64,000 bases of DNA from Tegillarca granosa (lineage: Eukaryota): contig CM056605.1 in the NCBI GenBank assembly GCA_029721355.1, positions 4,406,108 through 4,470,107 of the forward strand, read 5' to 3'. The notes below the pieces were generated by a model. The model was not told the origin of the DNA, did not search any database, and saw only the letters and a list, made by a program, of their open reading frames with translations. Numbering within the stretch: the first letter of the stretch is position 1; every line of letters starts with the position of its first letter. Below are positions 9,485 through 61,600 of the stretch, piece by piece. The position numbers were made by a program, and so were the translations under genes.

Positions 9485-12400
9485 GTACAAAACATTACCA
9501 AGAACAATCACTGAACACAGAACAATCAATGAACAACATAAGGTACACACAGTACAAACAATGAACAGCATAATGTAACACACAACGTGCAAACAATGAA
9601 CAGCATAAGGTAACACACACCGTGCAAACAATGAACAAGATAAGGTAACACACAAGGTACAAACAATGAACAAGATAAGGTAACACACACCGTACAAACA
9701 ATGAACAACATAAGGTTACACACACCGTACAAACAATGAACAAGATAAGGTAACACACACCGTACAAACAATGAACGAGATAAGGTAACACACACCGTAC
9801 AAACAATGAACAAGATAAGGTAACACACACCGTACAAACAATGAACAACATAAGGTAATACACACCGTACAAACAATGAACAAGATAAGGTAACACACAC
9901 CGTACAAACAATGAACAAGATAAGGTAATACACACCGTACAAACAATGAACAACATAAGGTAATACACACCGTACAAACAATGAACAAGATAAGGTAACA
10001 CACACCGTACAAACAATGAACAACATAAGGTAACACACACCGTACAAACAATGAACAACATAAGGTAACACACACGGTACAAACAATGAACGAGATACAG
10101 TAACACACACCGTACAAACAATGCACAAGATAAGGTAACACACACCGTACAAACAATGAACCAGATAAGTTTACAGATGCTGTGCGAACAATGAACAACA
10201 TAAGGTAACACACACCGTACAAACAATGAACAACATAAGGTAACACACATCGTGCAAACAATGAACGAGATAAGGTAACACACACGGTACAAACAATGAA
10301 CGAGATACAGTAACACACACCGTACAAACAATGCACAAGATAAGGTAACACACACCGTACAAACAATGAACCAGATAAGTTTACAGATGCTGTGCGAACA
10401 ATGAACAACATAAGGTAACACACACCGTACAAACAATGAACAACATAAGGTAACACACACCGTGCAAACAATGAACGAGATAAGGTAACACACACCGTAC
10501 AAACAATGAACAAGATAAGGTAACACACAAGGTACAAACAATGAACAACATAAGGTAACACACACCGTACAAACAATGAACAACATAAGGTAACACACAC
10601 CGTGCAAACAATAAACAAGATTAGGTAACACACACGGTACAAACAATGAACGAGATAAGGTAACACACACCGTACAAACAATGAACAACATAAGGTAACA
10701 CACACCGTACAAACAATGAACAACATAAGGTAACACACACCGTACAAACAATGAACAAGATAAGGTACCACACACCGTACAAACAATGAACAAGATAAGG
10801 TAACACACACCGTACAAACAATGAACAACATAAGGTAATACACACCGTACAAACAATGAACAAGATAAGGTAACACACACGGTACAAACAATGAACAACA
10901 TAAGGTAACACACACCGTACAAACAATGAACAACATAAGGTAACACACACGGTACAAACAATGAACGAGATACAGTAACACACACCGTACAAACAATGCA
11001 CAAGATAAGGTAACACACACCGTACAAACAATGAACCAGATAAGTTTACAGATGCTGTGCGAACAATGAACAACATAAGGTAACACACACCGTACAAACA
11101 ATGAACAACATAAGGTAACACACACCGTGCAAACAATGAACGAGATAAGGTAACACACCGTACAAACAATGAACAACATAAGGTAACACACACCGTACAA
11201 ACAATGAACAAGATAAGGTAACACACACCGTACAAACAATGAACAACATAAGGTAACACACACCGTACAAACAATGAACAAGATAAGGTAACACACACCG
11301 TACAAACAATGAACGAGATAAGGTAACACACACCGTACAAACAATGAACAACATAAGGTAACACACACCGTACAAACAATGAACCAGATAAGTTTACAGA
11401 TGCTGTGCGAACAATGAACAACATAAGGTAACACACACCGTACAAACAATGAACAACATAAGGTAACACACACCGTGCAAACAATGAACGAGATAAGGTA
11501 ACACACACGGTACAAACAATGAACGAGATACAGTAACACACACCGTACAAACAATGCACAAGATAAGGTAACACACACCGTACAAACAATGAACCAGATA
11601 AGTTTACAGATGCTGTGCGAACAATGAACAACATAAGGTAACACACACCGTACAAACAATGAACAACATAAGGTAACACACACCGTGCAAACAATGAACG
11701 AGATAAGGTAACACACACCGTACAAACAATGAACAAGATAAGGTAACACACAAGGTACAAACAATGAACAACATAAGGTAACACACACCGTACAAACAAT
11801 GAACAAGATAAGGTAACACACACCGTGCAAACAATAAACAAGATTAGGTAACACACACGGTACAAACAATGAACGAGATAAGGTAACACACACCGTACAA
11901 ACAATGAACAACATAAGGTAACACACACCGTACAAACAATGAACAACATAAGGTAACACACACCGTACAAACAATGAACAAGATAAGGTACCACATACCG
12001 TACAAACAATGAACAAGATAAGGTAACACACACCGTACAAACAATGAACAACATAAGGTAATACACACCGTACAAACAATGAACAAGATAAGGTAACACA
12101 CACGGTACAAACAATGAACAAGATAAGGTAACACACACCGTACAAACAATGAACAACATAAGGTAACACACACGGTACAAACAATGAACGAGATACAGTA
12201 ACACACACCGTACAAACAATGCACAAGATAAGGTAACACACACCGTACAAACAATGAACCAGATAAGTTTATAGATGCTGTGCGAACAATGAACAACATA
12301 AGGTAACACACACCGTACAAACAATGAACAACATAAGGTAACACACACCGTGCAAACAATGAACGAGATAAGGTAACACACACGGTACAAACAATGAACG

Positions 12401-13250
12401 AGATACAGTAACACACACCGTACAAACAATGCACAAGATAAGGTAACACACACCGTACAAACAATGAACCAGATAAGTTTACAGATGCTGTGCGAACAAT
12501 GAACAACATAAGGTAACACACACCGTACAAACAATGAACAACATAAGGTAACACACACCGTGCAAACAATGAACGAGATAAGGTAACACACACCGTACAA
12601 ACAATGAACAAGATAAGGTAACACACAAGGTACAAACAATGAACAACATAAGGTAACACACACCGTACAAACAATGAACAAGATAAGGTAACACACACCG
12701 TGCAAACAATAAACAAGATTAGGTAACACACACGGTACAAACAATGAACGAGATAAGGTAACACACCGTACAAACAATGAACAACATAAGGTAATACACC
12801 GTACAAACAATGAACAAGATAAGGTAACACACACCGTACAAACAATGAACAAGATAAGGTAACACACAAGGTACAAACAATGAAAAAGATAAGGTTACAC
12901 ACACCGTACAAACAATGAACAAGATAAGGTAACACACAAGGTACAAACAATGAACAAGATTAGGTAACACACACGGTACAAACAATAAACGAGATAAGGT
13001 AACACACACCGTACAAACAATGAACAACATAAGGTAACACACACCGTACAAACAATGAACAACATAAGGTAACACACTTCGTGCAAACAATGCACAACAT
13101 TAGGTAACACACACCGTACAAACAATGAACAACATAAGGTTACAAGCACCGTGCAAACAATGAATTAGATAAGTTTACAGATGCCGTGCGAACAATGAAC
13201 GTGATAAAGTTACATTTACCTTTTAAACAATAAGTGAGATAAGGAAACAA
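9485..13250. repeat. 35-bp satellite array of about 105 monomers, with a higher-order repeat of about 875 bp.
   Basis: The monomer is 'caaacaatgaacaacataaggtaacacacaccgta'. A marker variant monomer '..ccagataagtttacagatgctgtgcgaacaatgaac' occurs at 10161, 10371, 11036, 11384, 11594, 12259, 12469 and 13165, giving spacings of 210, 665, 348, 210, 665, 210 and 696 bp. This corresponds to an 875-bp HOR (25 monomers) in about 3 copies plus a 10-monomer insertion. Identical artefactual minus-strand ORFs of 63 and 76 aa recur at 10171/11394/12269 and 10381/11604/12479. Confidence 0.9.
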
Positions 13251-16859: not shown

Positions 16860-18720
16860 ACAAAATTACTTGACCAGTTTTGTAAAAAATATATCTTCAT
16901 ATACTCTTTCAAACAAAAACTTGTATGATATTAAATCTATAATATGTTGGCAGTGCCATAAAGTACCAAGATCATCTTTGTTTAACATAGTTTCTATATG
17001 TAGCCATGGTGACATAATATCACCAGACTGGTGCAAAGATAATACAATTTTATACATAAATGGTGAAAACTTGTTACAGTTAGGCTGAGCTAAATTACAC
17101 CAAAAATTATACATTCTTTGATATATTTTGGTATACAGCGGAAAACGTTCAAACTCACCATAAACTATATAATTTGGAGTTGATTTCCTAAGCTTTAAAA
17201 TACGTTTACAAAAATCTAAGTGTATACCATCTATTATATTTAAATTTTCGAAACCCCAAATTTCACAAGATTTAAGTAATAATGATACCACAAGACTATC
17301 AAACAACTCTTATTGTAAATCTGTTGGTAATTGAAAATACCTTATTTTACTTAATAAGGCGTACGTTGCCTTTATTGAATCTAAAAACGGTACTTAGATA
17401 TGTAAATGTATCTACTACCTCTATTGGCTGGTTGCCAATAGTAAAATTGTACTGGCGTTTACATTTTCGTGTATAGAATACAACAACTTTGGTTTTTGCT
17501 ACATTAATCTTAACTTCCATAAGGTACAATAATCATAAAATGCAGACAAGGAATTTTGTAAACAGTGTTAAGAATCTGACAATAGCATAGTATTATCGGC
17601 GTACAATAGAAAAAATAACTTGATAAAAATGTCCAATTTAACCAAGATTTTCCCTTTGTCTCACACCAACATTACAACTAAAAAAATAAAGTCCACCACC
17701 AACCTTAACACAGAATTTGATTGATTTATACATATTAAAAATAACATCAAACCTTTCACCAGTTATACCACAGTCAATAATTTTTTTTCCATAGGCCTGC
17801 TCTCCAGACTTTGTCAAATGCACACTTTAAGTCTATAAAGACAACTTTTTACCATGACTAAAATATAAAGTAACAATAGAATACAGAATAAAAATATTAT
17901 CCAGGGCAGAGTGGCCTTTCCTGAATCCTGCTTGTGCATCATTTATAAGATTTTCCTCTTCAGTATATTTCTTAAGGCGACTGTTGAGAATGTTGTAAAC
18001 AATTGCCAAAACAACTATAATTACCAGGATCCTTTACCGACCCCTTGTTTTTATAAATATGTTTAACTCCCCGAAGGTATCCATAACTCGGTAGGCAGTA
18101 CTTTGTGCTGTCAGAAAATGTACCATTTAGCAAAATTTTCAGCCGTCTAAAATTTGAAATTTATTTAAAACTAAGGTTTGTTCCCTCATGCAAAGCATTC
18201 CTTAGCTGGATTTGGATTTATATAATTTTGGAACTTTAGATTCATTATTTTCAAATGTTTGGCTTATGTTTTTTATCTATCAAACTTTTCGGTCTTAGTT
18301 TCACTGATGAGGAATAAATTTCCGAAATGTGCACATCTGGCACATCAAAATTTAACTGGTATTTGTGTTATATATTTAACAATACCAACTAACCATGAAT
18401 CCGGCACTTTGCCGGAGTTCAAAATAAGATTGAATATTTTAAAATATAATGGTAAAAAATATTCAGATATATATATTTATGATATATTCATTAAAGTTTT
18501 ATCTAAACCTGCTGCTTTGTTACATTTTTACTTTTTAATAGCAGCAATGATTTCATCAATAGTGATAGAACAATTCAAAATATCACTTGTATTTACACTT
18601 TTAGCTACATTACAATTATTTACATGTATTAAATCATCGTCAGAGTCATTAATATTATTAAGATACATAAAATGTTCGCACATACCTTCAACTAATGTAT
18701 GTTCATCGTCAACTACACAT
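16860..18720 (-). mobile_element. Degraded non-LTR (LINE) ORF2 reverse-transcriptase remnant, interrupted by a MITE insertion at 18055-18385.
   Basis: Minus-strand translation shows the RT N-terminal segment 'ITIDEIIAAIKK.KCNKAAGLDK' (18440-18720), then 'LINDAQAGFRKGHSALDNIF' (17900-17960), 'GVRQRENL' (17640-17700), 'KTKVVVFYTRK..IGNQPIEVVDTFTYLSTVF' (17347-17529) and 'SLLLKSCEIWGFE..HLDFCKRILKLRKSTPNYIVYGEFERFPL' (16866-17306). This is the canonical LINE RT motif order. The frames are broken by several shifts. Confidence 0.75.
18055..18385 (+). mobile_element. Near-complete MITE-like element.
   Basis: Head 'ccccgaaggtatccataactcggtaggcagtactttgtgctgtcagaaaat'. Body '..catgcaaagcattccttagctggatttggatttatataattttggaactttagattca..ggcttatg..tatctatcaaacttttcgg..cactgatgaggaataaatttccgaaatgtgcacatctggcacatcaaaatttaactggtatttgtgttatatattt'. 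The same sequence is seen at 7 other loci in both orientations. Confidence 0.75.
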
Positions 18721-19200
18721 TCAGATATATAGATGACGTTCTTTCTCTAAATAATCACAAATTTGGAGAATATGTGAATGTCATCTATCCAAGTGAGCTT
18801 GAAATAAAAGACACGACAGATTCTCCATGTTCTGCTTCATATTTGGACTTATACCTCAATTATGACACCCATGAATGGTTACATCTGAAGCTATACGACA
18901 AACGTGATGACTTCAATTTTTCTATTGTCAACTTTCCGTTTCTTTGAAGTAATATCCCTGCTTCTCCTGCGTATGGTGTATATGTTTCACAGTTAATACG
19001 GTACGGTAGAGCTTGTTCCCACTCTGGGAACTTTCTGCAACGAAGCAAATTACTTACAATTAAAATGTTGACACAAGGATATTGCAAGCCTAGGCTAATC
19101 AGGGCCCTTAAAAAGTTTTATGGCCGTCATCACAATATTGTTGATAAGTATGTAGTCACTGTATCCCAACTTATACTGGATATATTTGACTTACCATAGT
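18699..19200 (+). mobile_element. Retroelement RT-like fragment with a YIDD motif, family unclassified.
   Basis: The + strand translates to 'RYIDDVLSLNNHKFGEYVNVIYPSELEIKDTTDSPCSASYLDLYLNYDTHEWLHLKLYDKRDDFNFSIVNFPFL' and, after a stop, 'SNIPASPAYGVYVSQLIRYGRACSHSGNFLQRSKLL..QGYCKPRLIRALKKFYGRHHNIVDKY'. This is RT motif C plus a conserved C-terminal region, here interrupted by a stop. It lies on the opposite strand from the adjacent LINE. Confidence 0.6.
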
Positions 19201-20159: not shown

Positions 20160-20575
20160 TTTTCTGACAGCACAAAGTGTTGCCTACTGGGTACTACCCC
20201 TGAGCGGGTACCGCTGCTGGTTTAGTAAAACTCCCCGAGGGTATCCATAACTCAGTAGGCAGTACTTTGTGCTGTCAGAAAATATACAATTTATCAAAAT
20301 TTTCAGTCGTCTAAAATTTGAAATTTATTTAAAACTAAGGTGTTTTTCGGTCTTAGTGACACTGATGAGGAATGAATTTCCGAAATGTGCACATCTGGCA
20401 CATCAAAATTTAACTGGTATTTGTATTATATATTTACGAATGCCCTCGGCGAGTTTTAATTCACTAGCATGGTACAGGCTCAGGGATATTAAATAATTTG
20501 AAAAAATACCTGTATAAATTTAACGTCCCTTATGTGTACATTTCGGAAATTTATTCCTCATCAGTGACGTGAAAA
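20160..20575 (+). mobile_element. MITE-like copy with a complete head hairpin, an internal deletion and an inverted partial core at its 3' side.
   Basis: 'ttctgacagcacaaagtgttgcctactgggtac' (20160) and 'ctcagtaggcagtactttgtgctgtcagaaaat' (20250) form a stem of about 33 bp. The body runs 20290-20440. The reverse-complement core fragment 'cacatttcggaaatttattcctcatcagtgac' lies at 20535-20575. Confidence 0.7.
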
Positions 20576-22864: not shown

Positions 22865-23430
22865 TTAATGAATCTTAAGTTCCAAAATTATATGAATCCA
22901 AATCCATCTAAGGAATGCTTTGCATGAAAGGACAAACCTGTTTTAAATAAATTTCAAAAATTAAGATGACTGAAAATTTTGCTAGATGGTATATTATCTG
23001 ACAGCACCAAGTAATACCTACTGAGTTATTGATACTATCGGAGAATTCACTCCACCACCAACGGTACCCGATCAGGGGTAGTGAATATTCTACACAAATA
23101 CCTGATGAATTTTGATGTGCCGTATGTTTACATTTCGGAAATTTATTCCTCATCAGTGACACTAATGGCCAAAAAGTTTGATAGATAAAAAAATCATAAG
23201 CTAAACAGTTGAAAATTACTGAATCTAAGTTCCAAAATTATATGAATCCAAATCCAGCTAAGGAATGCATTGCATGAAGGAACAAAACTTAGTTTTATAT
23301 AAATTTCAAAAATTAAGACCGCTAAAAATTTTGCTAAATGGTATATTTTCTGACAGCACAAAGTACTGCCTACTGAGTTATAGATACCTTGGGGAGTTAA
23401 CTTCACCAGCAGCGGTACCAAAAATCAAAG
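22865..23430 (-). mobile_element. Two tandem copies of the MITE-like family (head-to-tail dimer).
   Basis: The copies lie at 22865-23170 and 23190-23430. Each carries the reverse complement of 'ggtaccgctgctggtg..ctcagtaggcagtactttgtgctgtcagaaaat' and of the body '..ggaatgctttgcatga..cactgatgaggaataaatttccgaaatgt..'. Confidence 0.7.
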
Positions 23431-26480: not shown

Positions 26481-26639
26481 ATCATGTTTTTGAATACGTT
26501 AGTAGTTGCTTAGGTTGCAAATCTATTTTTTCTAGTTCAAATGATTAAAAAAAAAGACGAAATCCATTATTTCAAAACTCAACCCTATTTGATATATTCT
26601 AGGATTACTTTCATTGGATCACTTAAATAATTCCCATAC

Positions 26640-26850
26640 CACAAACACGTACAAATATATAACAAATATCTGCTGAATTTTGATGTGCCAGATGTGCACA
26701 TTTCGGAAATCATTCCTCATCAGTGACACTAGGGGCCGAAAAGTTTGATAGATAAAAATGCATACGCCAAACAGTTGAAAATTAATGAATCTAAAGTTCC
26801 AAAATGATATAAATCCAAATCCAGCTAAGGAATGCTTTGCATGAGTAAAG
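26640..26850 (-). mobile_element. MITE-like family copy.
   Basis: Contains 'atctgctgaattttgatgtgccagatgtgcacatttcggaaatcattcctcatcagtgacactaggggccgaaaagtttgatagataaaaatgcatacgccaaacag...ccagctaaggaatgctttgcatgag'. Confidence 0.7.
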
Positions 26851-27734
26851 ATGAGCAAATTGGGTAAATCATTTCTTCTGGAATCGTCGATTCTATTTTT
26901 TAAAATAGCTTTTTAGAATAAACAAGAAATTGCATTATCACTGAGATATATATAGAATATTTGTTATATTTTTGATATTAAATGCGTAGGAAGGAATTAA
27001 ATATCTTCCTGTCTTCGTCGTGATGGGTTTCTCTATAACCTTCATCGTTAAAAAACACGCCTACGTTGCAGATCATGTAGGCGGTGGCAGTGTTAACTAC
27101 TTTAACGAACTTGTAAGGATACCATTCTTATCATCGTTTACACTCTGATTAAATACTATTTCAGAAATAACATAATCTTATAAACTTTTTAAATACAGTC
27201 GATTAATATTTTTCATTACCACGAGAAATATTCTTAATCAAATTTATTAAATTTGCTTTTTTATTATTTTAAATTTTAGCACTTAACAAATTCGAGCTTG
27301 GTTAATGTTATTATTCTTTGTGTCTATAAATAGACAGCTAAAAGAATTAACTACTTTAAGATATTTATTTTTTGAGCTACATTAGGTTTCAGAGTTCGAT
27401 GATTAAAAAAATTATTTTCAGCACAAGGCACGATTTCATTATCGTATTAAAAGGATATTTGTAATGATTTTATATAGAAATAATTCAAACTATTGCCTGT
27501 TTCTAGAATCTTCAGTTTAATCTTATCTTAAAAATCAGCTGACACAACATCCATATAGATACATATTTACATGTTGTATACCTTAATCATATTATAAGGC
27601 ATAGACTATAACAAGTAACGTTTTAGTAAAAATAACACATTATATTTTCAGTTTTATGTCTCAGAACGTTTTAATACAAGTAAAACTTGATAATTGCATT
27701 GTTCATTTTCAGTTTTGCTTTATTATTCAACCTT

Positions 27735-38204: not shown

Positions 38205-39095
38205 CAACAACATCCTAGTACAGGTAATTATTATAACATCCAAGTACAGGTAATTATCATAACATCCAAGTACAGGTAATTATCATAACATCCAAGTACA
38301 GGTAATTATCATAACATCCAAGTACAGGTAATTATCATAACATCCAAGTACAGGTAATTATCATAACATCCAAGTTCATGTAATTATTATAACTTCCAAG
38401 TACAGGTAATTATTATAACATCCAAGTACAGGTAATTATCATAACATTCAAGTACAGGTAATTATCATAACATCCAAGTAGAGGTAATTATCATAACATC
38501 CAAGTACAGGTAATTATCATAACATCCAAGTACATGTAATTATTATAACTTCCAAGTACAGGTAATTATTATAACATCCAAGTACATGTAATTATTATAA
38601 CATCCAAGTACAGGTAATTATCATAACATCCAAGTACAGGTATATATTATAACATCCAAGTACAGGTAATTATCATAACATCCAAGTACAGGTAATAATT
38701 ATAACATCCAAGTACAGGTGATTATCATAACATCCAAGTACAGGTAATTATTATAACATCCAAGTACAGGTAATTATCATAACATCCAAGTACAGGTAAT
38801 TATTATTACATCCAAGTACAGGTAATTATTATAACATCCAAGTACAGGTAATTATCATAACATCTAAGTACAGGTAATTATCATTACATCCAAGTACAGG
38901 TAATTATCATAACATCCATTTACAGGTAATTATCATAACATCCAAGTACAGGTAATTATCATAACATCCAAGTGCAGGAAATTATCATTACATCCAAGTA
39001 CAGGTAATTATCATAACATCTAAGTACAGGTAATTATCATAACATCCAAGTACAGGTAATTATCATAACATCCAAGTACAGGTAATTATTATAAA
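38205..39095. repeat. 26-bp satellite, about 34 copies.
   Basis: Unit 'acatccaagtacaggtaattatcata' with point variants (tta/tca, aca/tca). Confidence 0.9.
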
Positions 39096-40367: not shown

Positions 40368-40868
40368 TATCTATGTTCCATGTTCTGTAGTCTATGTTAT
40401 TTATGTTCTGTATTCTATGTTATATATGTTCTGTATTCTATGTTATATATGTTCTATATCTTCTATGTTGTCTATGTCCTGTATTCTATGTTATCTATGT
40501 TACGTATTCTGTGGTATCTATGTTCCATATTCCATGTTATCTATGTTCAATATATTTTATGTTATCTTTGTTTTACATATCCTATGTTATCTTTGTTCTG
40601 TATATTATGGTATGTATGTTCTATATATTCTATGTTATCTATGTTCTATATATTCTATGTTATCTATGTTCTATATATTCTATGTTATCTATGTTCCATT
40701 TTCAATGTTATTTAATGTTCTATATATTCTATATTATGTATGTTCTATATATTCTATGTTTTCTATGTTATGTGTTCTATGGTATCTATGTTCTGTCTTC
40801 TATAGTAATTTTGTTCCATTTTCCATGTTATTTTATGTTCTATATATTCTATGTTACCTTTTTCATAT
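40368..40868. repeat. 23-bp satellite, variant A.
   Basis: Unit 'ctatgttatctatgttctgtatt', about 21 copies, T-rich on the + strand. Confidence 0.85.
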
Positions 40869-43800
40869 AATCTACCGAAATGTTTTATATTAGTTTTGAT
40901 GTTTTTTAATTCTCGGTTACGTATGTTCTACATTCTTTTTTACCTTTGTTCTATATCTTGTTTTATCTTTGTTCTACATTCTTTTTTATCTTTATTCTAC
41001 ATTCTGTTTAATCTTTATTCTTCATTCTGTTTTATCTTTGTTCTATATTCTATTTTATCTTTGTCCTTTATTCTGTTTTATCTTTGTTCTATTTTGTGTA
41101 ATCTTTGTTCTATATCTTGTTTTATCTTTGTTCTATATTCTGTTTTCTCTTTGTTCTACATTCTGTTTTATCTTTGTTCTATATTCTGTTTTATCTTTGT
41201 ATTACATTCTGTTTTGTCTTTGTTCTATATTCTGTTTTATCTTGTTCAATATTCTGTTTTATCTTTGTTCTATATTTTGTTTTATCTTTGTCCTATATTC
41301 TGTTTTATCTTTGTTCTATTTTGTGTAATCTTTGTTCTATATTTATTTTAATCTTTGTTCTATATCTTGTTTTATCTTTGTTCTATATTCTGTTTTCTCT
41401 TTGTTCTACATTCTGTTTTATCTTTGTTCTATATTTTGTTTTATTTTTGTTCTATATTCTGTTTTATCTTGATCAATATTCTGTTTTATCTTTGTATTAC
41501 ATTCTTTTATATCTTTGTTCTATATTTTGTTTAATCTTTGTTCTACATTCTTTTTTATCTTTGTTCTACATTCTGTTTTATCTTTTTTCTACATTCTGTT
41601 TTATCTTTGTTTTATATTCTGTTTTATCTTGGTTCTATGTTTTGTGTTATCTTTGTTCTATATTCTGTTTTATCTTGTTCAATATTTGTTTTATCTTTGT
41701 TCAACATTCTTTTTTACCTTTGTTCTATATTTTGTTTTATCTTTGTTCTACATTCTTATTTATCTTTATTCTACATTCTGTTTTATCTTTGTTCTATATT
41801 CTGTTTTATCTTTGTTCTATATTTTGTGTAATCTTTGTTCTATATTCTGTTTTATCTTTGTTCTATATTCTGTGTAATCTTTGTTCTACATTCTATTTTA
41901 TCTTGTTCTACATTCTGTTTAATCTTTGTTGTATATTCTGTTTAATCTTGTTCTATATTCTGTTTTATCTTTGTTCTACATTATTTTATATCTTTGTTTT
42001 ATATCTTGTTTAATCTTTGTTCTACATTCTTTTTTATCTTTGCTCTATATCTTGTTTTATCTTTGTTCTACAGTCTTTTTTATCTTTATTCTACATTCTG
42101 TTTTATCTTTGTTCTACATTCTTTTTTATCTTTATTCTACATTCTGTTTTATCTTTGTTCTACATTCTGTTTTATCTTTGTTCTATATTCTGTTTTATCT
42201 TTGTTCTATATTCTTTTTTATCTTTATTCTACATTCTGTTTTATCTTTGTTCTATATTCTGTTTTATCTTTGTTGTATATTTTGTTTATCTTTGTTCTAT
42301 AAATTGTTTTATCTTTGTTGTATATTTTGTTTATCTTTGTTCTATATTTTGTTTCATCTTTGTTCTATATTTTGTTTTATCTTTGTTCTATATTCTTTTT
42401 TATCTTTATTCTACATTCTGTTTATCTTTGTTCTATATTCTGTTTTATCTTTGTTCTATATTTTGTTTTATCTTTGTTGTATATTTTGTTTATCTTTGTT
42501 CTATATTTTGTTTTATCTTTGTTGTATATTTTGTTTATCTTTGTTTTTAATTTTGTTTCACCTTTGTTCTATATTTTGTTTTATCTTTGTTGTATATTCT
42601 TTTTTATCTTTATTCTACATTCTGTTTTATCTTTGTTCTATATTTATTTTAATCTTTGTTCTATATTTTGTTTTATCTTTGTTCTATATTCTGTTTTCTC
42701 TTTGTTCTACATTCTGTTTTATCTTTGTTCTATATTTTGTTTTATTTTTGTTCTATATTCTGTTTTATCTTGATCAATATTCTGTTTTATCTTTGTATTA
42801 CATTCTTTTATATCTTTGTTCTATATTTTGTTTAATCTTTGTTCTACATTCTTTTTTATGTTTGTTCTACATTCTGTTTTATCTTTTTTCTACATTCTGT
42901 TTTATCTTTGTTTTATATTCTGTTTTATCTTGGTTATATGTTTTGTGTTATCTTTGTTCTATATTCTGTTTTATCTTTGTTCTATATTCTGTTTTATCTT
43001 GTTCAATATTTGTCTTATCTTTGTTCAACATTCTTTTTTACCTTTGTTCTATATTTTGTTTTATCTTTGTTCTACATTCTTATTTATCTTTATTCTACAT
43101 TCTGTTTTATCTTTGTTCTATATTCTGTGTAATCTTTGTTCTATATTCTGTTTTATCTTTGTTCTATATTTTGTGTAATCTTTGTTCTACATTCTATTTT
43201 ATCTTGTTCTACATTCTGTTTAATCTTTGTTGTATATTCTGTTTAATCTTGTTCTATATTCTGTTTTATCTTTGTTCTACATTATTTTATATCTTTGTTT
43301 TATATCTTGTTTAATCTTTGTTCTACATTCTTTTTTATCTTTGCTCTATATCTTGTTTTATCTTTGTTCTACAGTCTTTTTTATCTTTATTCTACATTCT
43401 GTTTTATCTTTTTTCTACATTCTTTTTTATCTTTATTCTACATTCTGTTTTATCTTTGTTCTACATTCTGTTTTATCTTTGTTCTATATTCTGTTTTATC
43501 TTTGTTCAATATTCTTTTTTATCTTTATTCTACATTCTGTTTTATCTTTGTTCTATATTCTGTTTTATCTTTGTTGTATATTTTGTTTATCTTTGTTCTA
43601 TAAATTGTTTTATCTTTGTTGTATATTTTGTTTATCTTTGTTCTATATTTTGTTTCATCTTTGTTCTATATTTTGTTTTATCTTTGTTCTATATTCTTTT
43701 TTATCTTTATTCTACATTCTGTTTATCTTTGTTCTATATTCTGTTTTATCTTTGTTCTATATTCTGTTTTATCTTTGTTGTATATTTTGTTTATCTTTGT

Positions 43801-45725
43801 TCTATATTTTGTTTTATCTTTGTTGTATATTTTGTTTATCTTTGTTTTTAATTTTGTTTCACCTTTGTTCTATATTTTGTTTTATCTTTGTTGTATATTC
43901 TTTTTTATCTTTATTCTACATTCTGTTTTATCTTTGTTCTATATTTATTTTAATCTTTGTTCTATATTTTGTTTTATCTTTGTTCTATATTCTGTTTTCT
44001 CTTTGTTCTACATTCTGTTTTATCTTTGTTCTATATTTTGTTTTATTTTTGTTCTATATTCTGTTTTATCTTGATCAATATTCTGTTTTATCTTTGTATT
44101 ACATTCTTTTATATCTTTGTTCTATATTTTGTTTAATCTTTGTTCTACATTCTTTTTTATCTTTGTTCTACATTCTGTTTTATCTTTTTTCTACATTCTG
44201 TTTTATCTTTGTTTTATATTCTGTTTTATCTTGGTTATATGTTTTGTGTTATCTTTGTTCTATATTCTGTTTTATTTTTGTTCTATATTCTGTTTTATCT
44301 TGTTCAATATTTGTCTTATCTTTGTTCAACATTCTTTTTTACCTTTGTTCTATATTTTGTTTTATCTTTGTTCTACATTCTTATTTATCTTTATTCTACA
44401 TTCTGTTTTATCTTTGTTCTATATTCTGTTTTATCTTTGTTCTATATTTTGTGTAATCTTTGTTCTATATTCTGTTTTATCTTTGTTCTATATTCTGTGT
44501 AATCTTTGTTCTACATTCTATTTTATCTTGTTCTACATTCTGTTTAATCTTTGTTGTATATTCTGTTTAATCTTGTTCTATATTCTGTTTTATCTTTGTT
44601 CTACATTATTTTATATCTTTGTTTTATATCTTGTTTAATCTTTGTTCTACATTCTTTTTTATCTTTGCTCTATATCTTGTTTTATCTTTGTTCTACAGTC
44701 TTTTTTATCTTTATTCTACATTCTGTTTTATCTTTTTTCTACATTCTTTTTTATCTTTATTCTACATTCTGTTTTATCTTTGTTCTACATTCTGTTTTAT
44801 CTTTGTTCTATATTCTGTTTTATCTTTGTTCAATATTCTTTTTTATCTTTATTCTACATTCTGTTTTATCTTTGTTCTATATTCTGTTTTATCTTTGTTG
44901 TATATTTTGTTAATCTTTGTTCTATAAATTGTTTTATCTTTGTTCTATATTTTGTTTCATCTTTGTTCTATATTTTGTTTTATCTTTGTTCTATATTCTT
45001 TTTTATCTTTATTCTACATTCTGTTTATCTTTGTTCTATATTCTGTTTTATCTTTGTTCTATATTCTGTTTTATCTTTGTTGTATATTTTGTTTATCTTT
45101 GTTCTATAAATTGTTTTATCTTTGTTGTATATTTTGTTTATCTTTGTTCTATATTTTGTTTCATCTTTGTTCTATATTTTGTTTTATCTTTGTTCTATAT
45201 TTTGTTTTATCTTTATTCTACATTCTGTTTATCTTTGTTCTATATTCTGTTTTATCTTTGTTCTATATTCTGTTTTATCTTTGTTGTATATTTTGTTTAT
45301 CTTTGTTCTATATTTTGTTTTATCTTTGTTGTATATTTTGTTTATCTTTGTTTTTAATTTTGTTTCACCTTTGTTCTATATTTTGTTTTATCTTGTTGTA
45401 TATTCTTTTTATCTTTATTCTACATTCTGTTTTATCTTTGTTCTATATTCTGTTTTATCTTTGTTCTATATTTTGTGTAATCTTTGTTCTATATTCTGTT
45501 TTATCTTTGTTCTACATTCTTTTTTATCTTTATTCTACATTCTGTTTTATCTTTGTTCTATATTCTGTTTAATCTTTGTTCTACATTCTTTTTATCTTCA
45601 TTCTACATTCTGTTTTATCTTTGTTCTATATTCTGTTTTCTCTTTGTTCTATATTTTGTTTTATCTTTGTTCTATATTTTGTTTTATCTTTGTTCTATAT
45701 TTTGTTTTATCTTTGTTATGTTTTA
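40869..45725. repeat. 23-bp satellite, variant B, about 210 monomers, with a higher-order repeat of about 1301 bp.
   Basis: Monomer 'ttttatctttgttctacattctg'. Diagnostic stretches such as 'ctatatttattttaatctttgttc' recur at about 41340, 42640 and 43940. Identical artefactual + strand ORFs recur at 41515/42816/44117, 41994/43295/44619 and 42017/43318/44642, giving spacings of 1301 and 1301-1324 bp. Confidence 0.9.
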
Positions 45726-48359: not shown

Positions 48360-49425
48360 TTAGTCAGATAACAACCAATTGTTAATACAGAAACAACTTC
48401 TTGTTTTTATCAACAACCATTTGTCATTGAACAAGCAAACAATTATCAATCATCAAAGAAAAATAAATAACTCATCAACATATAACCAACTGTCAATCAT
48501 GAAAGAAAATCAATTACCCATCAACAAATAACCAACTGTCAATCATCAAACAAAATCAATTATTTATCAATATATAACCAACTGTCAATCATCAAACAAA
48601 ATCAATTACCCATCAATATATAACCAACTGTCAATCATCAAACAAAATCAATTACCTATCAACATATAACCAACTGTCAATCATCAAACAAAATCAATTA
48701 CCCATCAATATATAACCAACTGTCAATCATCAAACAAAATCAATGACCCATCAATATATAACCAACTGTCAACCATCAAACAAGATCAATTACCCATCAC
48801 TTAATAACCAGCTGTCAATTATCAAACAAAATCAATTACACATCAACGTATAACCAACTGTCAATCATCAAACAAAATCAATGACCCATCAACATATAAC
48901 CAACTGTCAATCATCAAACAAAATCAATTACCCATCAACATATAACCAACTGTCAATCATCAAAGAAAATCAATGACCCATCAACATATAACCAACTGTC
49001 AATCATCAAACAAAATCAATGACCCATCACATATAACCAACTGTCAACCATCAAACAAAATCAATGACCCATCAACATATAACCAACTGTCAATCATCAA
49101 ACAAGATCAATGACCCATCAACATATAACCAACTGTCAATCATCAAACAAAATCAATGACCCATCAACATATAACCAACTGTCAATCATCAAACAAAATC
49201 AATTACCCATCAATAAATAACCAACTGTCAATTATCAAAGAAAATCAATTACCCATCAACATATAACCAACTGTCAATCATCAAACAAAATCAATGACCC
49301 ATCAACATATAACCAACTGTCAATCATCAAACAAAATCAATGACCCATCAACATATAACCAACTGTCAATCATCAAACAAAATCAATTACCCATCAACAT
49401 ATAACCAACTGTCAATCATCAAACT
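48360..49425. repeat. 46-bp satellite of about 22 copies, ending about 800 bp upstream of the GPCR start codon.
   Basis: Unit 'caactgtcaatcatcaaacaaaatcaattacccatcaacatataac', with the variants 'aatgaccc' and 'aattaccc'. There is 1 G per unit on the + strand. Confidence 0.9.
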
Positions 49426-50224
49426 ACACAATGTTTTTGACCAGAATCTTTATAAGGATTGTAATTTGTCTATTTGTCCTGTTAATCATTGCCTGTGACA
49501 GATATGGGTTTTTTCCCTACAAATTGTCAATTTGATATTGATTGTGTCGTTCTTCCGACAAATGTATTGCCTATCCAATGCAAATTTAGTTTACATAAAA
49601 AGACTTATGTCAATCGTCAGATTTTTTGAACAATTCAATAATTTGATTTTCGTCTAACGTATTAAGTTAGTCACTGCTAGATCACAGCACTTTGATATAT
49701 GTTTATAACAAGAAAAAGTTATTTAACATTTATTGAAACAATTCATTTAAATATTTAGCTCATAATATGATTTTTTTTCGAAAAAAAAACGGTTTAATAA
49801 ATTGATGCCTTTTTGTGAATGCAGGTTACATTCATTCACAGATTCTTATTGATAAGCCAACAGAAAGCAGCCACGTGGTCTACTTTTCAACTTGATTTTA
49901 TTTACGCTATGTAATTGGCGGAGTATATCATACGAGGGATGTTAGACTTTCTTTTTTTCCTTAGATGGAGAATTTATTCACAAATGAACACGCTATGATG
50001 TATTGCTTAGGCAGACGCCCACATGTGTGTATATATGATAGAAGAAGTCAAGTCTAAAGACTAATGAATCGAAGGGATTCCTGCAGACTAGTAAAGAATG
50101 TTTGTTAAAACATCAATCGATATAACATGATTCGAAGACAGAATATAAAGAGCTAGCCATGCTCCGGATTGCTATCAATGACTTAAGCGCATCTATCTAA
50201 ATATGTTGTGTTTTGTGAACACCA

Positions 50225-51882
50225 ATGGATTGGATGATGACCGGAATTATTTTAAATCACTCCCAATTAGAAGTGTCGTCAGCATCCGAGGATATAAATT
50301 ACACTTACAGATATTTAAATGAGTCAGATCATTTAGAGTATGGAAACATGACTTCGGTTTCTGAAGTTTTAAACACTGCGATAACTGTTTTCGGAATTTT
50401 TGTAATAGTGGCAACAGTTTTAGGAAATCTTTTAGTTATTGCTGCAATATTTTGTGACAGGAGGTTGAGACGAGTTGGTAACATTTTTATTGTTAACTTG
50501 GCAATAAGTGACATTCTAGTTGGGGTACTCGTTACCCCCTTAGCGTTGTTTTATCAACTTTCAGACTACTGGCCATTTGGATTACAGTTATGTAACTTTT
50601 GGGTATCTGTTGATGTTATATGCTGCACAGCTAGCATTGTTAATTTGTGTGTAATAAGTTACGACCGATATAATGCCATAATTAGACCTTTAAAATATGC
50701 TCGACAGAGAACGGCTAAAAGAGCCTTCGCACTTGTCGTCTTTGTATGGCTTTATGCCGTTGTAATCGCTGTCCCGCCATTTTTTGGTTGGAGAAAACAA
50801 TCGGAGATAGATAATCATTTAATATGCGGGATTTCGCAAGAACTTGGATACACTTTTTATTCTACAATTGCTGCATTTTACTTACCTTTGTTGATTCATG
50901 ATTTTCTTTTATGCCAAAATATTTCGAGTGACAAGTAAAAGAGGCAAGCAATGGGTCCGTGGACCAGGTTCTAGTAGATTACAGAGCCATAAGTGGGGTA
51001 AATTGCCAAAATCAGACGGTTGCTTGTTGTAGATTTTTGTTAAATAGGTTACGGTCGGAAAATCCACAAAGATTGAGACAAGATTCAACAACTTCTACCA
51101 CGTCATCAACGATACATAGGCGTAGTACAGTTGAAATGCCTTCCGATATCCGTACGGGAACTTTTTTGCTAGGTGCCAGAAACAGTTCAGTTTGTTCAAC
51201 GGCTGACGTTGTAATCGAAATTTCGCAAGGTAGGCGAAAACAAACAATCCAGAGACGAATGTTTCAGAGACAAATTTCAAACTTAACAAGCGATTCAAGC
51301 GGAACTTGTTCAACGAGTACTACAGGAACATCGGAGACATCTTTCTCGGATTCATCTTCGGATCGCCGATCTATTCAGCGAGCATCAAATGTTTTGCATA
51401 ATTTAGTAGCTGCTAATTTAATCGAAATTGCATCATTGCAAGAATCGCTTAAGGCTGTAAAATTTACTCAGCGCCCTCGTGATGTTCAATGTGCTTCCAG
51501 TGGCGATGAATTGGAAAGAGAAAAGGAAATACCACCAGTATTAAAAGAGGAGGAAAAGGAAGAAACCCCTCTTCCGGACTTGCCTTTAAAAAGAAAATGT
51601 AAAAACTTTTCTTTACCACAAGAGAGACGAGCAGTTAAAACATTAGGGATTGTGGTAGGATGTTTTGTTGTATGTTGGGTTCCGTTTTTTGTTGTGGAAT
51701 TATTAAAACCTTTATGTGTTGATTGTTATATTGACCCGATTATAAAGAATACTGTTATGTGGTTAGGATATTGCAACTCCGCGTGTAATCCAGTAATATA
51801 CACTTTTTTCAATAAGGATTTTAGGTGTGCCTTTAAAAAGATATTCCAGTGTAAAAGTTATGCATCGCCTACATATCTTTAG
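50225..51882 (+). CDS. Intronless biogenic-amine GPCR of the 5-HT1 (serotonin type 1) family. The genomic frame is disrupted by two +1 shifts (50897, and 50932-51029), so this may be a pseudogene or may carry assembly indels.
   Basis: The ATG at 50225 opens an N-terminus with four N-glycosylation sequons (NHS, NYT, NES, NMT). TM1 is 'GIFVIVATVLGNLLVIAAI'. TM2 is 'NLAISDILVGVLVTP'. TM3 is 'WVSVDVICCTASIVNLCVISYDRY' with D3.32 and DRY. TM4 is 'VVFVWLYAVVIAVPPFFGW'. TM5 is 'YSTIAAFYLPLLI' in frame 2 and continues 'MIFFYAKIFRVTSKRGKQ' in frame 3 after an extra 'c' at 50897. ICL3 is long and Ser/Thr-rich, running in frame 1 from before 51031. TM6 is 'KTLGIVVGCFVVCWVPFF'. TM7 is 'WLGYCNSACNPVIYTFFNKDFRCAFKKIFQCK', with NPxxY and a short tail resembling vertebrate 5-HT1A 'NKDFQNAFKKIIKCKF'. 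The stop TAG is at 51880-51882. Confidence 0.8.
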
Positions 51883-51883
51883 G

Positions 51884-51889
51884 AATAAA
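51884..51889 (+). promoter_or_regulatory. AATAAA hexamer 1 nt after the GPCR stop codon, a candidate polyadenylation signal.
   Basis: 'tag g aataaa gtc'. No downstream poly(A) tract is present, so this is a signal only. It could be chance in AT-rich DNA. Confidence 0.3.
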
Positions 51890-52305
51890 GTCAAATTTCC
51901 TAGTAAAATATCATTAATCATTTAACGGTGAGTCATAACAATAACGTAATATTTAAACCTATTGGGATTTTGTGTGTTTTGAATTTCATATCATGACACT
52001 TTGGTTGTGATGTTTTATTTAACTTTTCGAATTTAAAAGATTCAATACATTTTATTTTATATAAATGGCAGAAAGGTTTATTGTAAAGAAGAGGTTACAT
52101 TTGTTATATATTTTGTAGTTTCTGCCTTTTCCAAAGTGATATAAAGTAAAAATAAAAAAAAAACAACACACTTTTGTTTATGATATATTTATTTAAGAAG
52201 CAAGTTGTTACACAATTCAAAATATTTAGTTTTCTGAGTTGAATATCAAATGTCATGCCACTATTGTTTCTCAAAAAGCATTGTAAAACAAAAACTTGTT
52301 TGATG

Positions 52306-60715: not shown

Positions 60716-61341
60716 CACGGTGTTGATATGATTAATACACATTAATGTTGGGGGAGGGGATCCAATAACTATTAATACAAAATATGTGCATAAATGATTG
60801 TTAATGTGAATTTTAACATCTCTATTGTTTTGTTTTTATTTTCAATAAAATTAGATATTTGTCAAGAGAATTTTATGATTTTATTATTTGTATCTAGACA
60901 TCCATGGCTAGAAACAAAACTTCTTTGTGGCTTCAAGGATCCAAAAAGTTAGAAATGTATCATTGTTATGTTATGATAAATATTTTAATGACGGATGCGG
61001 ACAGCCATTTGGTACACTTCTGAAATTAAGGTTGCAGGACTATTGTCACAGATCAGTACAATATGGCGGTACAATAGAATAGAAGCAAACGGTATCTAAA
61101 TCGGATAGAAATGCTTCTGTGTCATATTACAAATTTGTTTAAAGGTACACAAATAATCTACATAATATTGGTTGCTGTGGTGCATTGGTTGGCAATTGCT
61201 ATTTAATGTAAAAAACCGAATGTTTTAAATAAACATCTCTAATAAAGCTTAGGCCATGATGGTATAGTAACCATATGCGTTTGCTGACGGATCACATCAC
61301 TAAACTGGGTTCGAAACCAAACTATTGCAAATTCTGTCAAA

Positions 61342-61600
61342 ATGTAGCAGGTATTTGTTATATATTTATATCAATGTAGCAGGTATTTGTTATATATTTA
61401 TATCAATGTAGCAGGTATTTGTTATATATTTATATCAATGTAGCAGGTATTTGTTATATATTTATATCAATGTAGCAGGTATTTGTTATATATTTATATC
61501 AATGTAGCAGGTATTTGTTATATATTTATATCAATGTAGCAGGTATTTGTTATATATTTATATCAATGTAGCAGGTATTTGTTATATATTTATATCAATT
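61342..61600. repeat. 32-bp tandem repeat of 8 copies, derived from the 3' terminus of the MITE-like family.
   Basis: The unit 'aggtatttgttatatatttatatcaatgtagc' equals the element tail '..caggtatttgt.ttatatattt' plus about 12 bp. Compare 18360-18385, 33715-33745 and 34075-34100 ('ttgttatatatttatatgtag'). Confidence 0.8.

Follow-up and report, generated by a model that had tools for sequence, protein, structure and literature searches.

The closest described relatives of the gene considered here are the serotonin (5-hydroxytryptamine, 5-HT) receptors of the 5-HT1 subfamily, of which human 5-HT1A is known from solved structures (PDB 7e2x and others). In bivalves, whose spawning is induced with serotonin, genes labelled 5-HT1A and 5-HT1D both occur (PMC10603676). 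We analyzed a 64-kb stretch of the genome of Tegillarca granosa (contig CM056605.1, forward strand, 4,406,108 to 4,470,107; hereafter the window, with positions counted from its first base). A complete aminergic G protein-coupled receptor (GPCR) gene lies at 50225-51882 on its plus strand and, according to the list of open reading frames (ORFs) and their translations, is spread over three reading frames. The initial annotation of this DNA had described a 5-HT1-like receptor gene with a frame broken twice into three open segments, and had left two explanations standing, namely a pair of assembly indels or a pseudogene of very recent origin. The description is borne out and the dichotomy matches what the evidence allows. 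We trace the breaks to two single C's, at 50897 and 51023, and consider that both probably arose as consensus errors when error-prone long reads were assembled. The gene itself is an ordinary, typical bivalve 5-HT1-type receptor that is already annotated in GenBank. What we add to the earlier description is the site at 51023, a spurious 113-nt intron in the public annotation, the single-exon orthologs, and the reasons that point toward assembly error.

Comparison with described 5-HT1 receptors

Deletion of both extra C's gives a corrected protein of 551 aa. Among receptors of solved structure, its best match is human 5-HT1A (270 bits, E=3e-79), followed by 5-HT1D (238 bits), 5-HT1B (229), 5-HT7 (227), 5-HT1E (224), and the alpha-1A adrenergic receptor (220). 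Taking greater similarity to 5-HT1 than to other amine receptors as the criterion, the gene would be placed in the 5-HT1 subfamily with a moderate margin, as measured by similarity scores without a tree, given that 5-HT7 and alpha-1A score just 40-50 bits below 5-HT1A. The third and fifth transmembrane helices (TM3, DV.CCT.SI; TM5, GYT.YST..AFY.PLL.M) are near-identical in the human 5-HT1A and clam proteins, which also have in common the CW.PFF and WLGY.NS..NP.IY motifs, a long third intracellular loop (ICL3), and a short C-terminal tail. However, the similarity is limited to the transmembrane core, in two aligned stretches, and the ICL3 sequences are unrelated.

Alignment of the corrected protein with orthologs from related species, a check that had been proposed with the initial annotation, extends the comparison to other bivalves. 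The proteins of Mizuhopecten yessoensis (P0007), Argopecten irradians (P0006), Ylistrum balloti (P0005), and Pinctada imbricata (P0003) are 50-55% identical to it over >92% of the length. The pteriomorph genes annotated as “5-hydroxytryptamine receptor 1D-like” have the same architecture, a TSxRGxQWxRGPGSS motif after TM5, and, where checked, an intronless coding sequence (CDS). They differ from the T. granosa gene in the sequence and length of ICL3, and none of them has a frame break. In M. yessoensis, the ortholog is a single ORF of 552 aa (L002, 3001-4659), and in P. imbricata, a single ORF of 547 aa (L003, 3001-4644). No report of a cloned 5-HT receptor from T. granosa emerged from a literature search.

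A further ortholog comes from a related species, presumed to be an ark clam, and is carried by Logan contig SRR29726839_433132 (run SRR29726839; hereafter L001), where one uninterrupted ORF at 1105-2754 encodes a protein of 549 aa (P0002). Over window positions 49871 to ~53040, both flanks included, L001 is collinear with the T. granosa sequence, and its single-exon CDS encodes the same ICL3. It differs in lacking the two C's, which leaves one intact ORF, in a 6-nt in-frame indel at the N-terminus, and in a synonymous divergence (dS) of 0.42. The corrected protein and P0002 differ at 31 of 547 aligned residues (~94% identity), which is far beyond what chance would produce. Because the flanks are collinear, the T. 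granosa locus is orthologous to that in L001, and not a retro-copy; a processed (retro-copied) pseudogene is ruled out by this collinearity on both sides and by the fact that the functional orthologs are themselves intronless.

Two extra bases break the reading frame

The whole CDS (50225-51882, plus strand, as are all parts of the gene) forms one exon of 1658 nt, that is, 1656 nt (551 codons and a stop) plus two extra bases, and is collinear with the intact ORF of L001. As it stands in the assembly, it is divided among an ORF in frame A (50225-50938, 237 aa, ending at the TAA at 50936-50938), an ORF in frame B (50898-51032, ending at the TAG at 51030-51032), and an ORF in frame C (50959-51882, in a frame that stays open between 50926 and its stop at 51880-51882). 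In a DNA alignment with L001, the CDS of the window contains exactly two 1-nt insertions, both of them C, 126 bp apart, and each appears as a single-column gap.

The first extra C, at 50897 (TTGATT[C]ATGATT), lies in TM5, between Ile224 (5.53) and Met225 (5.54), directly 3′ of a third-position T (ATT and ATC both encoding Ile). The TM5 sequence ...AAFYLPLLI | MIFFYAKIFRV... is readable only if this C is skipped, and the alignment with human 5-HT1A passes straight across the break. The second, at 51023 (GGTTG[C]TTGTTG), lies within the Cys cluster GCCCRF of ICL3 and likewise adjoins a third-position T (TGC and TGT both encoding Cys). Neither C is in a homopolymer, and neither duplicates a neighboring base. 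The initial annotation had singled out the C at 50897 as a base outside a homopolymer, had confined the second shift to 50932-51029, and had held that both shifts are +1 and do not compensate each other; the L001 alignment agrees on every count and pins the second shift to a single base. The third and last CDS indel relative to L001 is the N-terminal one mentioned above, and the corrected CDS contains no further frameshifting indels or stops.

The insertions delimit three segments. Segment 1 (50225-50896, frame A, residues 1-224) encodes the N-terminus with four N-glycosylation sequons, TM1-TM4, the second extracellular loop (ECL2), and TM5 up to ...YLPLLI. Segment 2 (50898-51022, frame B) reads MIFFYAKIFRVTSKRGKQWVRGPGSSRLQSHKWGKLPKSDG followed by TG, and supplies the C-terminal half of TM5 with its Y229 (5.58), and then the conserved start of ICL3. 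Segment 3 (51024-51882, frame C) contains the remainder of ICL3, TM6, TM7, helix 8, and the TAG stop codon at 51880-51882. The sequence between the breaks includes the motif TS(K/R/S)RG(K/Q)QW.RGPGSS and a subsequent Cys cluster, both conserved in the orthologs from Pinctada and the scallops.

A third single C relative to L001 is found in the 5′ flank, at 50006 (TATTG[C]TTAGG), and shares the context TTG[C]TT with the C at 51023. Over 49860-52290, the window has five single-base insertions relative to L001, and three of these are C, despite a G+C content of 30% in the window. The resemblance between the sites at 50006 and 51023 could be a coincidence or a systematic consensus error, the cases being too few for a conclusion.

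Selective constraint on the restored frame

The ratio of nonsynonymous to synonymous divergence (dN/dS) was calculated by the Nei-Gojobori method for the corrected CDS and L001, and is 0.066 for the whole CDS. All parts have low values, namely 0.092 before the first break, 0.083 between the breaks, and 0.039 after the second break, where the remaining ICL3 gives 0.044 and the region from TM6 to the C-terminus 0.02. We take such low ratios to mean that strong purifying selection has acted on the restored frame over essentially all of the divergence. With nine outgroup orthologs as reference, the 31 amino-acid differences were also polarised: the window lineage accounts for four derived changes and the L001 lineage for 10, and 17 are ambiguous. 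The T. granosa lineage thus has no excess of amino-acid change and no relaxation.

Neither relaxed constraint nor further decay, as would be looked for in a pseudogene, was therefore found in the corrected CDS, in keeping with the earlier statement that the gene has no other decay. Given this absence of decay and the intact orthologs, the two lesions are either artefacts or extremely young. Any real inactivation would have to be very recent, with less than ~1% neutral divergence since the event as a rough bound.

Origin of the two insertions

The explanation that we favor, with some confidence, is that the two extra C's (50897 and 51023) are consensus errors, which would have arisen in the long-read assembly of a highly heterozygous genome. 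We infer that the animal's DNA most likely lacks both, and that the double frameshift most likely has no biological reality. The T. granosa assembly was built from “third-generation” long reads, according to a title quoted in PMC10939072; the heterozygosity of the species is 1.3% (PMC8136487); and a statement in PMC12007338 describes long-read errors as a known source of frameshifts that pseudogenise genes. The two lesions are alike (+C), near each other, and non-duplicative, and they lie in a gene without decay. We estimate that two non-duplicative C's would both abut a third-position T with a chance of ~0.07 under random placement, and this arrangement fits a merging of synonymous T and C alleles. 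In such a scheme, of our own devising, two linked heterozygous synonymous T/C single-nucleotide polymorphisms (Ile ATT/ATC and Cys TGT/TGC) would each have been written as two bases, TC and CT, respectively.

Several points weigh against an assembly error. Residual long-read errors usually fall in homopolymers, and these two sites do not. The ~6.7 kb of tandem arrays in the window keep their register with no +1 insertions, which speaks against a generally noisy assembly, so that two errors within 126 bp would need a local cause. The writing of one polymorphism as two bases is a mechanism that would be ours alone, with no documented precedent in the sources. Bivalves carry many loss-of-function alleles, and we estimate that the substitution data would be consistent with a real null haplotype aged ~0.1-1% divergence. 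Exact look-ups of the 551-aa corrected protein, and of fragments of 237, 307, and 248 aa, found no match in the sequence collection, a look-up of contigs encoding P0001 gave no record, and a query of 174 aa spanning the breaks retrieved nothing by homology, not even P0002, so that this last search is uninformative. Finally, if the window came from an assembly other than the one underlying KUTeg_005519, the public model of this gene, then the C at 50897 that they share would be an independent replication and would favor a real lesion. However, the public protein matches the window at 514/514 residues, which makes it much more likely that both come from the same assembly.

The alternative that survives best, and to which we give perhaps a minority chance, is that both C's are real. 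The sequenced haplotype would then carry a receptor null allele, which either still segregates as a loss-of-function allele or, with lower probability, has just become fixed as a unitary pseudogene, and translation would end at the TAA at 50936-50938, yielding a 237-aa stub comprising TM1-TM5. The position of the insertions outside the typical error sites and the absence of +1 noise elsewhere in the window, which count against an artefact, count in favor of this explanation, as does the 1.3% heterozygosity of T. granosa (PMC8136487). Two lesions in one young allele would also be less surprising than they seem, as indels in the flanks occur at ~0.13 per substitution, from which we calculate that a second indel at ~0.3% divergence would be ~50% likely. 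Against a null allele stands the constraint on the gene, which is unrelaxed in all three segments (dN/dS 0.04-0.09), with four polarised changes in the clam against 10 in the sister lineage, and with no other disabling changes. A single intact ORF is conserved in ark-clam, scallop, and pearl-oyster genomes, and an old null allele of so strongly constrained a gene is unlikely. In addition, two independent, non-duplicative insertions of the same base within 126 bp are required, and real 1-bp insertions mostly duplicate a neighboring base. Were the insertions real after all, T. granosa would carry a naturally knocked-out allele of a conserved receptor for serotonin, of modest interest for the genetic load and neurobiology of bivalves.

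Recoding, by two programmed +1 ribosomal frameshifts or by correction at the RNA level, would leave the gene functional as encoded and its product a full-length receptor, and has in its favor only that the remainder of the gene looks functional; we regard it as extremely improbable, as neither AUU-C-AUG nor UGC-U-UGU has a slippery or “hungry-codon” context, an in-frame stop, or a rare codon. A shift-prone site shared with the orthologs, in which a slippery P-site codon is followed by an A-site codon that is slow or a stop, was thus not found; the shifts are missing from the sister species and from the more distant orthologs, and no base-deletion RNA editing is known in molluscs.

The public gene model and its annotated intron

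The GenBank entry for the gene, which together with P0002 made up the two close matches of a homology search, is KAJ8317615.1 (P0001), hypothetical protein KUTeg_005519 [Tegillarca granosa]. Its 514 residues correspond, 514/514, to window positions 50225-50934 joined to 51048-51882, and the window almost certainly comes from the KUTeg assembly, JARBDR000000000. The join implies a 113-nt GT..AG “intron” at 50935-51047, an interval that we also recovered independently by enumerating GT..AG pairs. Its removal connects frame A to frame C, giving ...LLIHDFLLCQNISSDK|LRSENPQ.... Past the first insertion, the model translates 38 nt out of frame (HDFLLCQNISSDK) and is without the true C-terminal half of TM5 and the conserved start of ICL3, hence 514 aa compared with 551 in the corrected protein. 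The gene predictor regained an open frame by inventing this intron.

We conclude that the intron is spurious and that KUTeg_005519 is wrong over TM5 and ICL3, because the orthologs are single ORFs and a conserved motif lies between the breaks. The opposite claim, that the public model is right, with a real 113-nt intron spliced out and a functional receptor of 514 aa, can draw on the presence of splice sites (donor GT in CAA|GTAAAAG; acceptor AG in TTGTTAAATAG|G) and on the open frame after splicing. We give it practically no credence. The sequence removed as intron is coding and under purifying selection, is in frame in L001, and contains the motif shared with Pinctada and the scallops. The CDS of the orthologs is free of introns, and splicing would exchange the end of TM5, including Y5.58, for the wrong-frame HDFLLCQNISSDK. 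Moreover, the same GT..AG pair exists in the L001 ortholog, where it spans 111 nt, the counterpart of the annotated intron, that are entirely ORF, which makes the splice-like sites incidental.

Splicing was also considered more generally as a means of repair. Among the enumerated GT..AG intervals, several join frame B to frame C (e.g., those of 40 and 55 nt that begin at 50993) or, like the annotated 113-nt interval, frame A to frame C, and none of them mends the first site or keeps LLI-MIFFY. That site needs the removal of one base, and a 1-nt “micro-intron” is impossible; the earlier statement that there is no room for an intron there is therefore correct.

The biological stakes of these findings are small, and their practical value lies in the curation of the public gene model. 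As it stands, the mis-modelled KUTeg_005519 would mislead work on receptor phylogeny, docking, or expression in T. granosa, an aquaculture species. The locus is also a clean example of how gene predictors can hide frameshifts in long-read assemblies.

Domains and motifs of the corrected receptor

The corrected protein matches the Pfam family 7tm_1 (PF00001) with E=1.5e-74 and 251 bits, against a cut-off of 30.5, over residues 67-507 and profile positions 1-260 of 260. Such a match, above the gathering score and covering TM1-TM7, identifies it as a class A GPCR. In corrected numbering, its aminergic hallmarks are D130 (3.32, in SVDVI), the DRY motif at 147-149, CWVPFF at 483-488, WLGYCNS with W7.40/Y7.43, and NPVIY at 521-525, together with the TM5 pair S213/T214 (5.42/5.43). 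These residues align to the equivalent positions of 5-HT1A, as expected of an aminergic GPCR, and motif mapping and the Pfam match thereby uphold the initial annotation, which had listed D3.32, DRY, the TM5 S/T pair, CWxPFF, and NPxxY. The cysteine pair of the ECL2 disulfide is present as well (C123, 3.25, and C201). At S5.42/T5.43/A5.46, the clam protein reads YSTIAAFY, compared with YSTFGAFY in 5-HT1A, a pattern that is not the Ser triad of catecholamine receptors. An ICL3 of ~231 aa and only 26 residues after NPVIY give the protein the Gi/o-type layout of the 5-HT1 receptors.

The helices were placed by motif mapping and by alignment with 5-HT1A. TM1 (residues 52-77) is encoded at 50378-50455, TM2 (residues 85-112, with LAISD) at 50477-50560, and TM3 (residues 120-152) at 50582-50680, where the codon for D130 occupies 50612-50614 and the DRY codons 50663-50671, C123 also lying in this helix. 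TM4 (residues 164-189) follows at 50714-50791. TM5 (residues 208-235, GYTFYSTIAAFYLPLLIMIFFYAKIFRV), at 50846-50930, is the helix split by the extra C at 50897, and its alignment to 5-HT1A is continuous. The ICL3, a long one like those of Gi/o-coupled 5-HT1 receptors, extends over 50931-51624 and includes the second extra C (51023). TM6 (residues 467-496) lies at 51625-51714, with CWVPFF at 51673-51690, and TM7 (WLGYCNSACNPVIY) and helix 8 (KDFRCAFKKIFQC) together occupy 51739-51852, with NPVIY at 51787-51801.

From these motifs, the corrected 551-aa receptor would be predicted to bind serotonin via D3.32, S5.42/T5.43, W6.48/F6.51/F6.52, and Y7.43, and to signal through Gi/o by means of DRY, Y5.58, and the long ICL3. 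Two bases past the TAG stop codon (51880-51882) is an AATAAA hexamer (51884-51889), which could be a polyadenylation signal or mere AT-rich sequence.

Surroundings of the gene

The receptor is the sole recognisable gene in the window, which is dominated by satellites, the rest being satellites and repeat debris. An Rfam scan of the window gave no match. A CAA-rich tandem array with a 46-nt unit (48446-49424, 21 copies) ends ~800 bp upstream of the receptor ATG, and upstream of the gene in L001, the equivalent position (L001 1-209) is occupied by a CAA-rich array with a 22-nt unit. This correspondence suggests a genomic origin for the L001 sequence and a long-standing association of the array with the receptor gene.

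Farther upstream, a large T-rich satellite at 40380-45717, with a unit of 23/46/69 nt, contains many long spurious ORFs. A higher-order period of ~1301 nt seems to be present in it, with matches at 41444, 42745, and 44046 and near-identical ORFs 1301 nt apart. A 35-nt satellite at 9515-13214 (~106 copies, 89% matches) stays in register save for a few 2-3-nt deletions, two of which are 1608 nt apart and hint at a duplicated block; on its minus strand, spurious ORFs reach 844 aa.

ORF fragments resembling retroelement remnants occur at 18699-18947 (plus strand) and 16866-17306 (minus strand), with a YxDD-type, reverse-transcriptase-like motif recognized by eye (...FRYIDDVLSL...). A Pfam scan, which was limited to the minus-strand ORF at 16866-17306, gave no match. 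A short interspersed repeat, which translates as ...SLMRNKFPKCAHLAHQNLTGICVIYL..., recurs on both strands within ~8 kb, at 18259-18400, 20269-20496, 22908-23162 (minus), and 26619-26858 (minus), and is probably a SINE-like (short interspersed nuclear element) or MITE-like (miniature inverted-repeat transposable element) sequence. Clean tandem arrays are found at 175-969 (146 nt x5.4), 38209-39094 (26 nt x34), and 61341-61599 (32 nt x8), the copies of the last being 100% identical.

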